Positions 6,965-11,012 of a DNA stretch of 43,362 bases are shown here, piece by piece. Both the position numbers and the translations under genes were made by a program. The DNA is from Acetobacteraceae bacterium (lineage in GTDB: Bacteria > Pseudomonadota > Alphaproteobacteria > Acetobacterales > Acetobacteraceae). Below the pieces are notes generated by a model. It worked only from the letters and a program-made list of their open reading frames with translations. It did no database searches and had not been told where the DNA came from. Every line of letters starts with the position of its first letter. Within the stretch, counting starts at the first letter, position 1. The stretch is taken from the NCBI GenBank assembly GCA_035252035.1, contig DATFDN010000076.1:1-43362 (forward strand), read 5' to 3'.

Positions 6965-7049
6965 GTCATTCCCGCGAAAGCGGGAATCCAGGCCCACACG
7001 CACCAAATTCCGAGTGGTTCGCTTGGATTCCCGCTTTCGCGGGAATGAC
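6965..7049. repeat. REP/BIME-like element: two inverted copies of a 26-bp self-palindromic unit
   Basis: 'gtcattcccgcgaaagcgggaatcca' (6965-6990) has its exact reverse complement 'tggattcccgctttcgcgggaatgac' at 7024-7049, 33 bp away. Each unit is itself a hairpin (attcccgc-gaaa-gcgggaat). It sits in the cofC/DJ-1 intergenic gap. Confidence 0.85.
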
Positions 7050-7129
7050 GGCCTGAAGGTTCACGCTGGCTGGTATGACTTGTCCATGCCATGAGGCTCG
7101 CGTCGCCCATTCCAAGGAAGGCTCCCTCC

Positions 7130-7813
7130 ATGACCCTCCAAATCGGCCTCCTCGTGTTCCCCCGCGTGCAGCAACTCGATCTCACTGGCCCGTATGAGGT
7201 CTTCGCCTCCCTGTCTGGCGCCGAGGTCCATCTAATCTGGAAGAGCAAGGAGCCTATCGTCTCCGCCACCGGCCTGGTTCTGACGCCCACGGCGACGTTC
7301 GCGGACTGCCCCGCGCCACTCGACGTGCTCTGCGTGCCAGGCGGGGCGGGCGTGAACGCGCTCATGCGGGACGCGGAGGCACTCGATTTCGTGCGCCGAC
7401 AGGCCGCAGACGCCCGCTATGTCACCTCGGTCTGCACCGGCGCGCTCGTGCTGGGAGCCGCGGGGCTGTTGCGCGGCAAGCGGGCCACCACGCACTGGGC
7501 CTCGCACGATCTGCTCTCCAGGTTCGGCGTCATCCCCGTCCGGGCGCGCGTGGTGCGCGACGGCAACCTTGTGACCGGCGGCGGGATCACGGCGGGGATC
7601 GACTTCGCCCTTTCCCTCGCCGCCGAACTGGTCGGGCGAGAGAAGGCCGAAGCCGTGCAGCTCAATCTGGAATACGCGCCCGCGCCGCCCTTCGACGCCG
7701 GCACGCCCGAGACCGCGCCGGACGCGGTGCGCGCGGCGGTCCAGGAACGCGCGGCCGCGATCCGGCGGGAGAGGGAAGAGATCATCGCCGCGCTCACGGG
7801 TGGCCCGGTGTGA
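7130..7813 (+). CDS. DJ-1/PfpI family protein
   Basis: From the ATG at 7130 (SD 'aaggaagg' upstream): 'IGLLVFPRVQQLDLTGPYEVF', 'LCVPGG.G', nucleophile elbow 'VTSVCTGALVLGAAGLL.GK.ATTHW', and 'VRDGNLVTGGGITAGIDFAL'. Confidence 0.85.
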   Translation: MTLQIGLLVFPRVQQLDLTGPYEVFASLSGAEVHLIWKSKEPIVSATGLVLTPTATFADCPAPLDVLCVPGGAGVNALMRDAEALDFVRRQAADARYVTSVCTGALVLGAAGLLRGKRATTHWASHDLLSRFGVIPVRARVVRDGNLVTGGGITAGIDFALSLAAELVGREKAEAVQLNLEYAPAPPFDAGTPETAPDAVRAAVQERAAAIRREREEIIAALTGGPV

Positions 7814-7988
7814 CCGGGCTCTACTAAGCCCGACGATGCCTCGGGCGCCCTCTCCTACTCCCAAATATCCAACCGGCTTCAGCCTATTGGAGAGGTCCAC
7901 AAGGTGCCCGGAACGTGCCCAGAATGTTGCGCGGCCTTGTAAGCAATTTGGTGTGGCAAGGCGCCGCGTTCATTTGGGAGGGGAAGCA

Positions 7989-8231
7989 ATGAGGCGCCTG
8001 AAATTCACGCTGCTCGCCGCAATCGCCTTGGGTTTTGCCACAAACGCCGCGCCTTTGCAGGCTTGTAATGGCAGGGGCAACTGCGATCACGGTGCGCCAG
8101 GGCCATTGGCCGGGGCGGGGCTGCCGTTCCTCATCGCGGCGGGAGCAGCAGGCGGATACTGGCGCCTCCGTCGGCGGTCGCAGGAAAGCCGTTATCGTTC
8201 GGGAGATGCGGCGCAGGTTCGTGACCACTAA
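7989..8231 (+). CDS. 80-aa secreted mini-protein with a PEP-CTERM-like tripartite C-terminal sorting signal
   Basis: SD 'gggagg' lies upstream of the ATG at 7989. The signal peptide is 'MRRLKFTLLAAIALGFATNAAPLQA' and the core is 'CNGRGNCDHG'. The sorting signal is 'APGP' + hydrophobic 'LAGAGLPFLIAAGAAGGYW' + basic 'RLRRR'. The 3' end overlaps the next gene. Confidence 0.55.
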   Translation: MRRLKFTLLAAIALGFATNAAPLQACNGRGNCDHGAPGPLAGAGLPFLIAAGAAGGYWRLRRRSQESRYRSGDAAQVRDH

Positions 8232-9039
8232 GGTTGGCCTCTCCCGTACCGAACTCTTCGCTGGCCTTTGCATCCTGGGCTTCGTGAACGGGATCACCGG
8301 CCGCGCACATAATGCCATCGTCAATCATGGGCCGACGGCGGCGCTCCTCGACACGTTTGGAATCAGCGCCATCGTCTGGGTCGCCTTCTTCGCCTGCCCC
8401 GCCTTGCTGCTCCGTGCCCCGAGAGAGAGGCTTCGCCGCGCCGATCTGATCGTGGCGGCGTGCGCCCTCGCGGCCTTCATGCTGCCCATCACCCCCTTGA
8501 GCTGGATCGCCCTTACCGGCCTCGCGCTGTACCTCCTTCGCGACCGGCAGCCGCGTTCCGAGGCGCATTGCGGCGCCTGGATTCTCCTCGCCATCACTGG
8601 CGCAATGTTCTGGGGGCGCTTGTTGATGCTGACCTTCAACGGCCCGATCCTGGCGGCCGATGCCCTCCTGGCGTCCTGGTTCGCCGGGACGGATCACGCG
8701 GGCAACACGGTCCGCTTCGCCGACGGCGAGGGCTATGTCTGGATCGCGCCACCCTGCTCCTCGCTCGCCAACGCCTCGCTCGCGGTCCTCTGCTGGGTTC
8801 TGTTCATGCAATTTCGCGGCCTCAAATGGTCGCTTGGGAACGTCGGCTGGTGCCTGCTCGCCTGCGTCGCCGTCACCGCCATCAACGTCACGCGCATCGG
8901 GCTGATGGTCCTGCACCGCGACGCATTCGACGTGATCCATGGTCCCCTGGGCGCCGCCGTGGCGAGTTGGTTGAGCATGGGCGTCATGCTAGGAATCGGC
9001 ATGGTGGGAACACGACGTGGCCGCCTCGCTCACGTTTAG
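8206..9039 (+). CDS. exosortase/archaeosortase-family-like polytopic membrane protein
   Basis: About 8 hydrophobic segments. Ordered candidate triad: Cys in 'VWIAPPCSSLANASL' (codon at 8755), Arg in 'AINVTRIGLMV' (8893), His in 'DVIHGPLG' (8938). This echoes the Cys/Arg/His signature I recall for exosortases. C-ending codon bias is strong. The start is either the ATG at 8206 or the GTG at 8221, and both overlap the upstream mini-gene. Confidence 0.6.
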   Translation: MRRRFVTTKVGLSRTELFAGLCILGFVNGITGRAHNAIVNHGPTAALLDTFGISAIVWVAFFACPALLLRAPRERLRRADLIVAACALAAFMLPITPLSWIALTGLALYLLRDRQPRSEAHCGAWILLAITGAMFWGRLLMLTFNGPILAADALLASWFAGTDHAGNTVRFADGEGYVWIAPPCSSLANASLAVLCWVLFMQFRGLKWSLGNVGWCLLACVAVTAINVTRIGLMVLHRDAFDVIHGPLGAAVASWLSMGVMLGIGMVGTRRGRLAHV

Positions 9040-9517
9040 GAGCCTCGTCGCGCTTCTGCTCGTCGTGAGCGTCGGCATCAAGCTCACTATCAGGAGCCAG
9101 CCATCACACGGCGCGGTGCCGGCCACCGAAAGCCCCGCGACCGGCGCGGTCGCCGCCTTTCTCGATCGCCACGGATTTCGGGTGAATGAGGCTGACTCCC
9201 GGCCCGAGTCCCCAGTCGTGTTCGCCGACGCGGGCACTTGCCGCCTGCTGGCGGTCTTGGCCGCGCCGGAGGGATGGCACCGGGAGCTTGTCCGCCGCTT
9301 GGCATCCCCCGACGATCAGGTCTTCTTCGTGTTCGACGGCACGGTGTATCCCAACCAGCCGGTATGGCGCACCTGGATACACCATATCTGGGGCGAGTTG
9401 AATCGTTATATCGGACTCACGCCCTCCAGCCGGCCGGTCGTGGGAGTCATCGCGTCTCCAAGCTGCGATCTGCGGAACATGCCGTGGCGGGAGCTTGCGG
9501 CGCCCTTGCCGCGCTAG
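9017..9517 (+). CDS. membrane-anchored hypothetical protein (third gene of the cassette)
   Basis: 166 aa. The GTG start overlaps the previous gene by 23 nt. It has an N-terminal TM 'LVALLLVVSVGIKL' followed by a soluble domain. Third-position GC bias is good. I recognise no family. Confidence 0.5.
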   Translation: MAASLTFRSLVALLLVVSVGIKLTIRSQPSHGAVPATESPATGAVAAFLDRHGFRVNEADSRPESPVVFADAGTCRLLAVLAAPEGWHRELVRRLASPDDQVFFVFDGTVYPNQPVWRTWIHHIWGELNRYIGLTPSSRPVVGVIASPSCDLRNMPWRELAAPLPR

Positions 9518-9566
9518 AACGTTTTCGGATCACATTAAAGCGTTCGAATTCTGCTTGCGCCCGTCA

Positions 9567-9592
9567 CACCTCTCCCGCCTGCGGGAGAGGTG
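9567..9592. repeat. GC-rich hairpin (REP-like, possible terminator) between convergent genes
   Basis: 'cacctctcccgc'-ct-'gcgggagaggtg' is a perfect 12-nt inverted repeat, flanked by the outer pair ctgctt/aagcag. A related half-motif 'gcccgcaaggggaggggtc' lies at 9666-9684. Confidence 0.6.
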
Positions 9593-9701
9593 AAGCAGCA
9601 GTTCGCCGTACATCACCTCTACTCCCTGGTCCGGCAAATCGTTCCGCACATGTGAGGCCGCCGTAGCCCGCAAGGGGAGGGGTCGAAACTACAATCGCGG
9701 A

Positions 9702-11012
9702 TCAGTACCGGTACAGCTCGTGCTTGAACGGCCCGCTCGGCGGCACCCCGATATACTCGGCCTGCTTCGGCGTCAGCTTGGTCAGCTTCGCGCCCACCTT
9801 GGCCAGATGCAGCGCCGCCACCTTCTCATCCAGCGCCTTCGGCAGCGTGTACACCTTGCGCTGATAGGTGCCGGCCGGCGCGGTGAACAGCTCGATCTGC
9901 GCCAACACCTGATTGGTGAAGGAGGCGCTCATCACGAAGCTCGGATGACCGGTGGCGTTGCCGAGATTCACCAGCCGCCCCTCCGACAGCACGATCAGCC
10001 GCTTGCCGTCCGGGAACACCACCTCGTCCACCTGCGGCTTCACGTTCTCCCAGCGATAGTTGCGCAAGGACTCGATCTGGATCTCGGAATCGAAATGACC
10101 GATGTTGCAAACGATGGCGCGGTGCTTCATGCGCCGCATGTGGTCGAGGGTGATGACATCGACATTGCCCGTGGCGGTCACGAAGATGTCGCCCGCCGGC
10201 GCGGCGTCGTCCATGGTGACGACCTCGTAGCCCTCCATCGCCGCTTGCAACGCGCAGATCGGGTCGATCTCCGTCACCATCACCCGGCACCCGGCGTTGC
10301 GCAAGGACGCGGCCGAGCCCTTGCCCACGTCGCCGAAGCCGTTCACCACGGCGACCTTGCCCGCCATCATCACGTCGGTGCCGCGCCGGATGCCGTCCAC
10401 CAGCGACTCCCGGCAGCCATAGAGGTTGTCGAATTTCGACTTGGTGACGCTGTCATTCACGTTGATCGCCGGCACCAGCAGCGTCCCGTCCCGCTCCATG
10501 TCGCGCAGCCGATGCACTCCGGTCGTGGTCTCTTCCGAGAGGCCGCGCACATCGGCCAGCATCTCCGGATACTTGTCGTGCATCAGCTTGGTGAGATCCC
10601 CGCCGTCATCGAGGATCAGGTTCGGCGTCCAGCCATCCGGGCCGCGCACCGTCTGCTCGATGCACCACCAGAATTCCTCCTCGCTCATCCCCTTCCAGGC
10701 AAAGACCGGGATGCCGGCGGCGGCCACGGCGGCGGCGGCGTGGTCCTGGGTGGAGAAGATGTTGCACGAGGACCAGCGCACGATCGCGCCCAGCGCCGTC
10801 AGCGTCTCGATCAGCACCGCCGTCTGCACCGTCATGTGCAGGCAGCCGGCGATCCGCGCGCCCTTGAGTGGCTTGGAGGCCCCGTACTCGGCCCGCAGCG
10901 CCATCAGGCCGGGCATCTCGTCCTCGGCCATAGAGACTTCCTTGCGGCCCCATGCGGCGAGCGAGATGTCCTTCACCTTGTAGTCCTCAGTCGGGGTCCG
11001 GCCGGCCATCAC
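9702..11012 (-). CDS. ahcY: adenosylhomocysteinase
   Basis: 436 aa. '[28 protein letters not shown]', '[21 protein letters not shown]', '[11 protein letters not shown]' and the C-terminal 'GPFK...YRY' are classic SAH hydrolase motifs. Confidence 0.95.

Follow-up and report, generated by a model that had tools for sequence, protein, structure and literature searches.

Do three small overlapping genes, lying among genes of unrelated function, form a protein-sorting system of their own? The question is raised by positions 7989-9517 of a contig from an Acetobacteraceae bacterium (DATFDN010000076.1), of which 43,362 nucleotides (nt) were analysed, in the following called the window. Exosortases are widespread, but experimental work has dealt with only a few of their systems. 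A sequence-only reading of this DNA had seen in the locus a mini-protein with a sorting signal, an exosortase/archaeosortase-like membrane protein and an anchored protein of unknown family, and had proposed a dedicated one-substrate system of an undescribed subtype. From the analysis reported here, the cassette probably is an exosortase-type system for protein processing that is complete in itself and belongs to no named subtype; g1 would be the substrate, g2 the enzyme and g3 an accessory. In the list of open reading frames (ORFs), the three genes appear as follows (aa, amino acids; TM, transmembrane segments):

7989..8231, + strand, g1: 80-aa mini-protein precursor with signal peptide, 10-aa core CNGRGNCDHG and sorting-type tail
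8206..9039, + strand, g2: 277-aa, 8-TM exosortase/archaeosortase-family protein of no named subtype
9017..9517, + strand, g3: 166-aa single-pass partner with a periplasmic alpha/beta domain, family unknown

The list agrees with the overlaps read before: g1 and g2 share 26 nt, or 11 nt if g2 starts at the alternative GTG at 8221, which gives the 272-aa product on record (P0001), and g2 and g3 share 23 nt. A Shine-Dalgarno sequence (GGGAGGGG) lies 6 nt 5' of the g1 start.

The g2 protein and the exosortase family

A word-indexed search with the window g2 retrieved 194 full-length homologues at 40-72% identity from Acetobacteraceae, Microvirga, Methylocella and others, which carry the names 'hypothetical' or 'exosortase/archaeosortase family protein'. 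When a g2 profile was run against 1.84 billion cluster representatives, 1144 were matched at E<=1e-3, 806 at E<=1e-10 and 306 at E<=1e-30; the family size of more than 1100 is a count of clusters at 50% identity. The best 150 listed representatives were all family members, and a tblastn search of plasmids with the member P0062 likewise returned family members only.

Membership was then assessed by scanning 36 sampled homologues, each alone, against NCBIfam release 20.0 (June 2026). The superfamily model TIGR04178 (exo_archaeo) was matched by 34 of them (best E 1.8e-8). Fewer matched, with weaker scores, ArtD, XrtX, ArtE, XrtK, XrtW, CrtA/B, XrtO or 8TM_EpsH, in the same region, and the remaining model matches were isolated noise. 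In ten homologues examined, model positions of about 3-93 of 97 align with the Cys-to-His region. The 23-bit cutoff of TIGR04178 was reached by six of these (31.9, 28.0, 23.8, 23.6, 23.4 and 23.2 bits), and the other four lay just under it; identity of the tested homologues to the window g2 was 42-71%. None of the named subtype models (XrtA-XrtX, CrtA/B, ArtA-ArtE) reached its cutoff in the g2 family. The best scores, given with the cutoffs in bits, were XrtK 20.4/55, ArtD 22/125, XrtW 16.7/425, XrtX 17.2/170 and CrtB 15.6/300; the matches to ArtD and ArtE are sub-threshold ones. A search of PDB sequences with the g2 profile gave no match at E<=10. Judged from its homologues, g2 is an exosortase/archaeosortase-family protein of an unnamed subtype, as the sequence-only reading had supposed.

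The EpsH family was defined by the motifs Cys-x-Gly, Asn-x-x-Arg and His-x-x-x-Gly, predicted to lie at the outer ends of three consecutive helices (Haft 2006, PMC1569441). The corresponding sites of g2 are:

8755..8763, + strand, Cys184-Ser-Ser: putative nucleophile motif, invariant in alignments of 36 and 64 sequences
8884..8895, + strand, Asn227-Val-Thr-Arg230: EpsH N-x-x-R motif, N227 and R230 invariant in both alignments (36 and 64 sequences)
8938..8952, + strand, His245-Gly-Pro-Leu-Gly249: EpsH H-x-x-x-G motif, H245 and G249 invariant in both alignments (36 and 64 sequences)

The g2 family keeps five of the six EpsH motif residues in register, the Gly of C-x-G being replaced by an invariant Ser (C-S-S). 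In the window protein Cys184 stands in PPCSSL, Arg230 in NVTRIG and His245 in IHGPLG. These are the very residues that had been singled out as Cys241, Arg287 and His302 in the numbering of the ORF from 8035; counted from the 8206 start they become Cys184, Arg230 and His245, and they turned out to be the invariant ones. The pattern C[ST][ST]...N-x-x-R...H is kept in 232 of 242 full-length family members. Of the ten that deviate, four have CSA or CAS but keep Cys, N-x-x-R and His, and six appear to have a frameshift ahead of the C-terminus.

For the topology, an AlphaFold2 model was made of P0040, a homologue in which g2 and g3 are fused (pLDDT 84, pTM 0.74; the predicted local-distance and template-modelling scores, respectively). 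In its g2 part, ten-residue blocks mostly score above 90 pLDDT, and eight TM helices are formed. The model places the Cys at the periplasmic start of TM6, the Arg near the periplasmic end of TM7 and the His in the periplasmic loop just before TM8, i.e. each at the outer end of one of three successive helices, with all three residues and the g3 domain on one face. The loop charges of the window g2 put the catalytic-residue face in the periplasm. A Foldseek search of the PDB with this fusion model gave no significant match.

EpsH/XrtA (TIGR02602; PMC1569441) is built in the same way, its Cys, N-x-x-R and H-x-x-x-G being placed where three successive helices of an 8-TM enzyme reach the periplasm. 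The g2 family differs from it in the C-S-S motif, which is C-x-G in EpsH, and in the model scans: no XrtA/EpsH model reached its cutoff, and 8TM_EpsH was matched by just one of the 36 homologues.

The g1 mini-protein and its C-terminal tail

The gene upstream of g2 encodes a very small protein in which the following parts can be told apart:

7989..8063, + strand, aa 1-25: N-terminal Sec-type signal peptide (MRRLK, hydrophobic core, A-x-A), assigned by reading
8088..8105, + strand, aa 34-39: signature H-G-A-P-G-P, which abuts the helix
8106..8177, + strand: C-terminal TM helix (LAGAGLPFLIAAGAAGGYW) and basic cluster RLRRR, the helix strongly conserved (AGAGLPFL..G.Y)
8178..8228, + strand: 17-aa cytoplasmic extension past the basic cluster, overlapping the g2 start

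The tail, PGPLAGAGLPFLIAAGAAGGYWRLRRR (8097-8177), consists of APGP, a hydrophobic stretch of 19 residues and RLRRR, and it is the sole example of such a tail in the 43-kb window. Its tripartite, sorting-type layout had been read from the window alone, and the comparison with relatives supports it as genuine and conserved. In 26 tails both Pro of the signature are invariant and the Gly is nearly so. Among 119 database mini-proteins, position -1 is A in 109, position -2 is G in 112 and position -3 is H, K, R or S. The consensus reads [H/K/R/S]-G-A-P-G-P-[ILV]-A-G-A-G-L-P-[FI]-L-x-x-x-G-x-Y-x-L-[VI]-[RK]-R-R-R, with a basic cluster RRRR or RRYR after the helix of about 19 residues. Past this cluster, 11-13 residues follow in relatives of the Acetobacteraceae type (loci L001-L005) and 0-5 in most others.

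A profile of the tail gave 2323 database matches at E<=10 among 8000 candidates scored. The best 120 of these are all 48-79 aa long and nearly all named 'hypothetical protein'; three have automatic annotations that are unrelated (YjeT/DUF2065, LPXTG-motif, MYXO-CTERM). About 50 g1-type sequences were inspected; most start with a signal peptide, and a minority, of the type found in loci L017 and L019, have N-termini that resemble uncleaved helices. Between signal peptide and motif lie 5-35 residues, rich in G, N, H and D. Regions before the tail are dissimilar between lineages, being of a Cys-loop, a His/Asp-rich or a Gly/Trp-rich kind. A CxxGxxC-type loop is present in 33 of the 119 database mini-proteins, and its window version is CNGRGNC. 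In relatives with this loop, A-x-A immediately precedes the first Cys; in the window, the signal peptide would be cleaved after TNA or LQA. We also observed that the stretch at 8049-8084 (aa 21-32) contains PLQA followed by C, which is loosely lipobox-like, and N-terminal lipidation of the window g1 may occur.

Criteria for tripartite C-terminal sorting signals, including those of dedicated systems, were set out in a preprint that also notes a motif directly abutting the helix for signals cut by membrane-embedded enzymes (Haft 2023, bioRxiv 10.1101/2023.06.07.544157). With respect to these, the g1 tail lies near the C-terminus and has invariant or near-invariant residues (P, G and P and the A-G-x-G-L after them, where at least three are asked for), a helix and a basic cluster (2-5 residues asked for), and g1 and g2 show the regular adjacency of target and enzyme that the clause on dedicated systems names. 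When ten g1-type proteins were scanned against the NCBIfam sorting-domain models, none reached a cutoff. PEP-CTERM (TIGR02595) was rejected, with zero matches at E<=10 in the same ten proteins and G-A-P-G-P as the signature; the LPXTG-anchor, GVDTG and MYXO-CTERM models showed generic helix-plus-basic similarity only, all below cutoff. A tblastn search of plasmids with the 40-aa tail gave no match, which is uninformative for so short a query in a large database. Altogether, the sequences describe the g1 tail as a new and strongly conserved sorting-type tail ('PGP-type') cognate to g2.

In overall design g1 resembles the PEP-CTERM substrates of XrtA (TIGR02595), which carry a signal peptide and a tail of motif, helix and Arg cluster. 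However, its signal is HGAPGP instead of PEP, and g1-type substrates are about 70 aa long, apparently few per genome and usually encoded beside the enzyme, whereas the substrates of XrtA are dozens of larger proteins. Archaeosortase A (ArtA) of Haloferax volcanii, which acts on PGF-CTERM, shares the TIGR04178 superfamily signature with g2, and its signal motif likewise starts with Pro-Gly and abuts the helix. For ArtA, experiments summarised in the preprint (bioRxiv 10.1101/2023.06.07.544157) provide the precedent of a tail that is removed in connection with lipid attachment. ArtA differs in being archaeal and in having large S-layer glycoproteins as substrates. The JDVT-CTERM/MrtJ system of the Haft 2023 preprint also has adjacent genes for enzyme and target and few targets per genome, and, as in g1, the TM part of its signal is conserved, which suggests recognition within the membrane. 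In contrast to g2, MrtJ has no relation to exosortases, being a glutamic protease of the CPBP/Rce1 type, and the JDVT-CTERM signal has an invariant Cys that the g1 signal lacks. With sortase A and LPXTG, finally, the cassette has in common a Cys/Arg/His chemistry, putative in g2, and a tripartite C-terminal signal; sortase, however, has an unrelated fold and a single membrane anchor, a spacer separates its motif from the helix, and it serves the Gram-positive cell wall.

The cassette in other genomes and the partner g3

A genome scan with the g2 alignment yielded 24 loci, from Falsiroseomonas, Dankookia, eight Microvirga species, four Bradyrhizobium, Methylobacterium aerolatum, Aliirhizobium, Methylocapsa, a Beijerinckiaceae metagenome-assembled genome (MAG) and alphaproteobacterial MAGs. 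In 21 of them, as in the window, a g1-type gene is found no more than 4 kb from g2. A g3 homologue begins at the g2 stop codon or ahead of it in 23; in the 24th the contig ends there. The co-occurrence of the three genes in related genomes, proposed as a check on the sequence-only reading, was observed at these loci. When the ORFs of the 24 loci and the window were clustered, g1, g2 and g3 were the only common genes, which makes the cassette the unit. Carriers of g2 or the tail include Bradyrhizobium, Microvirga, Methylobacterium, Methylocella/Methylocapsa, Rhizobium and Acetobacteraceae, and in the one locus examined that was annotated by the PGAP pipeline, g2 and g3 are both called 'hypothetical protein'.

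High-GC DNA such as that of the window yields many long spurious ORFs on both strands, a circumstance in favour of taking the three ORFs for chance or mis-called frames. This explanation is already refuted by the three proteins being conserved, and in the same order, in five or more families of Alphaproteobacteria, and the hundreds to thousands of database relatives and the confident AlphaFold2 models leave it practically no probability.

The usual place of g1 is directly 5' of g2 on the same strand. Exceptions are five tandem copies in L012 and two in L015, a gene on the other strand (L015 and L017) and one downstream (L019). In L012 (2384-3830, a Methylocapsa MAG), five tandem genes of about 55 aa precede g2, and each encodes a signal peptide, 5-8 variable residues and a near-identical PGP-helix-RRWRKR tail, so that the set resembles the multi-copy arrays of precursor peptides. 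Bradyrhizobium sp. Leo121 has at least three g1-type mini-proteins, two of them without g2 among the called genes of their contigs. These unlinked genes (L025/L026:3339-4818 and L027) lie amid small ORFs of 79, 87 and 156 aa without a Pfam match and near ATP-dependent DNA ligase-like genes; only the queried gene of each locus has the tail. As a general rule, the 'one-substrate' system of the sequence-only reading had to be given up, since relatives have 1-5 adjacent mini-protein genes as well as unlinked copies.

The same reading had remarked on the absence of the exopolysaccharide (EPS) and glycosyltransferase loci that usually accompany XrtA. For the window this stands, with no homologue of 13 EPS proteins taken from the loci of relatives; it does not hold for the family. 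In the Rhizobiaceae loci (L018:2254-8635, L028:1-6331 and L029:3501-12755), g2-g3 is situated inside EPS loci without a nearby g1, like EpsH-EpsI and unlike the window cassette. Encoded there are glycosyltransferases (GT1, GT2 and GT4), a MurJ/Wzx-type flippase and a Wzz-GNVR tyrosine-kinase-type protein, besides an epimerase and an acetyltransferase; g2 of these three loci is about 37-40% identical to other family members. Near the Microvirga cassettes are a GT2, a methyltransferase, a weak Wzy_C match, a VanZ-like protein and RTX beta-helix proteins. Secreted RTX-repeat proteins, serralysin-like or with a right-handed beta-helix, recur beside the cassette in Falsiroseomonas and Microvirga loci, on the - strand in each (L001:2499-4505, L006:5711-7009 and L009:5394-6710).

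The third gene encodes a protein with one N-terminal helix and an alpha/beta domain (AlphaFold2, pLDDT 80). Its invariant residues in 24 sequences are K22, C75, P140 and C150, of which three are of particular interest here:

9080..9082, + strand, g3 Lys22: at the periplasmic end of the membrane helix, invariant in 24 sequences
9239..9241, + strand, g3 Cys75: with Cys150 at 9464-9466, both invariant in 24 sequences

From this conservation, Cys75 and Cys150 probably form a periplasmic disulfide; a role of Lys22 as the acceptor in a transpeptidation is pure speculation. Ten database proteins of 438-462 aa are fusions of g2 and g3 (P0040, P0044, P0045, P0049, P0051, P0058, P0127, P0136, P0149 and P0263; also L030:4001-5300). 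In the P0040 model an extra helix brings the g3 domain to the side of the catalytic residues. Microvirga ossetica has two such fusions, one chromosomal and the other on a plasmid of 1.3 Mb; upstream of the plasmid copy are two g1 genes, on opposite strands.

EpsI (TIGR02914) is encoded just downstream of, or fused to, EpsH, and its function is not known (PMC1569441). The g3 protein was compared with it, having been read as 'an EpsI-like accessory or something new'. A single-pass, conserved partner in the EpsI position is indeed what the loci show. EpsI itself (TIGR02914; PF11984) was matched by none of the 24 homologues at E<=10, in NCBIfam or Pfam, and the likeness is one of position, 3' of the enzyme or fused to it, and not of membership. 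No other Pfam or NCBIfam family was matched by the 24 homologues at E<=10 either, and a Foldseek search of the PDB with the g3 model gave no significant match. ArtA is not known to have a g3-like accessory.

The loci also bear on the possibility that g1 is not a substrate. It might be an intact small bitopic subunit or regulator whose helix assembles with g2 and g3 into a membrane complex acting e.g. on polysaccharide or the envelope; PGP-helix-RRRR would then be the functional part and the variable N-terminal stretch a linker. This would suit a tail far more conserved than the rest of g1, a putative mature part of just about 5-8 residues at the Methylocapsa locus, the uncleaved-helix look of the L017 and L019 N-termini and the g2-g3 pairs in EPS loci without an adjacent g1. 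On the other hand, g2 keeps the invariant Cys, Arg and His of a peptidase family whose archaeal member ArtA, according to the summary cited above, is needed for the removal of such tails, the g1 tail agrees exactly in its tripartite layout with signals known to be cleaved, and 2-5 tandem and additional unlinked copies suit substrates better than a stoichiometric subunit. We consider an uncleaved g1 quite unlikely.

In the window, the cassette is flanked by genes that are unrelated to it, as had been stated: upstream by the F420 genes CofD and CofC and by DJ-1/PfpI, downstream by AdoHcyase (ahcY, convergent with g3) and then glutamate dehydrogenase. The impression of more A/T-ending codons than in the neighbours holds weakly for g1, where the G+C content of third codon positions is 0.667 (81 codons), but not for g2 (0.838) and g3 (0.814), which fall within the neighbours' range of 0.787-0.92; a horizontal transfer of g2 and g3 is not supported by codon usage. 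No promoter-like site was found for the cassette, no Rfam match in 7000-10000 and no upstream DNA motif conserved between the window and the five closest loci. A single terminator-like match 5' of g1 (7949-7966) is within chance expectation. The 184-nt gap between the convergent g3 and ahcY contains a perfect 12-nt inverted repeat with a 2-nt loop at 9567-9592 (CACCTCTCCCGC gg GCGGGAGAGGTG), which may act as a bidirectional terminator.

A proposed mechanism and its significance

The sequences show that g2 is homologous to the exosortase family, that its motifs and the g1 tail are conserved, with the motifs placed as predicted, and that the genes are linked and in part fused; cleavage and its site, transpeptidation, the acceptor and the role of g3 are inferred. 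By analogy with the ArtA/PGF-CTERM precedent, the cassette could work as follows. The g1 protein would be exported via the Sec pathway by its N-terminal signal peptide and held in the inner membrane by its C-terminal helix, with RLRRR on the cytoplasmic side; this orientation would place HGAPGP at the periplasmic membrane surface. There g2 would recognise the motif together with the helix and cut at or near PGP through a Cys184-acyl intermediate, with the help of Arg230 and His245. The mature product would be a short peptide (in the window about CNGRGNCDHGAPG, probably disulfide-looped), which is then transferred to an acceptor by transpeptidation, or released; candidates for the acceptor are a lipid head group or a polysaccharide precursor. 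The g3 protein may be an obligate periplasmic accessory, e.g. for the presentation of substrate or acceptor, in keeping with the position of EpsI beside EpsH/XrtA.

If release were the only outcome, g2 would be a hydrolytic maturation protease that frees tiny peptides such as signals, metal-binding peptides or antimicrobials into the periplasm or the medium, with nothing anchored or sorted. The tail would be comparable to the recognition sequence of ribosomally synthesised and post-translationally modified peptides, and the hypervariable core would be the product. Such cores beside a conserved tail, several tandem precursor genes, a composition that is either disulfide-looped (33/119) or rich in G, N, H and D, and a window without acceptor-making genes can all be cited in its favour. 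However, no modification enzyme, exporter or immunity gene is conserved with the cassette, relatives occur in EPS loci, and the ArtA precedent, as summarised in the preprint, couples cleavage with lipid attachment. Release alone seems improbable to us, and it departs from the exosortase-type processing favoured here only in the fate of the product.

Several observations weigh against an exosortase-type system. Direct scans of the three window proteins with hidden Markov models gave nothing useful: the window g2 itself matched no exosortase model at E<=10 (0 families in NCBIfam, no PF09721 in Pfam). Its family membership comes from homologues 40-70% identical to it, many of which score slightly under the TIGR04178 cutoff. 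A failure of g2 to match any exosortase model, with its Cys, Arg and His not conserved, had been named as what would speak against the sequence-only reading; the window protein did fail to match, but the refutation does not follow since the homologues match TIGR04178 and the three residues are conserved. The motif of the g2 family is C-S-S instead of the canonical C-x-G, and no solved exosortase structure was found for a comparison of folds. In three loci no g1 lies within 4 kb of g2, and the g3 homologues are not EpsI by either model. The 'cargo' of g1 is very small, and conservation is higher in the tail, which would be thrown away; this is unusual for sorting and fits a structural role for the tail.

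The kind of enzyme is known, and its subfamily, signal and partner are not covered by NCBIfam or Pfam models; literature searches found no description of the g2 subtype, a PGP-type signal or the partner. From the described exosortase systems, this one is set apart by four features: the motif C-S-S instead of C-x-G, a signal of the PGP type, substrates that are nearly all mini-proteins and a partner other than EpsI. It represents a missing exosortase subtype, i.e. a large family without a curated subtype or sorting-signal model, which recurs across soil Alphaproteobacteria. The compact unit of one enzyme, one partner and one to few tiny substrates looks simpler than PEP-CTERM/XrtA with its dozens of substrates, and it could reveal exosortase chemistry, namely cleavage site and acceptor, as well as the contribution of a partner in the EpsI position. 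The EPS-embedded and stand-alone versions within one family offer a natural comparison for the relation of exosortases to polysaccharide export.

A bolder version, possible although we rather doubt it, is that the cassette is an exosortase-based factory for very small ribosomal peptides and does not sort folded surface proteins at all. In that case a hypervariable core of 5-35 residues, a CxxGxxC loop or a stretch rich in His, Asp, Asn and Gly, would be cut from a conserved recognition helix, and a lipid, a polysaccharide or even the invariant g3 residue Lys22 may then serve as its attachment point. If true, soil and symbiotic Alphaproteobacteria would make mini-peptides of a new class, secreted or attached to the envelope.

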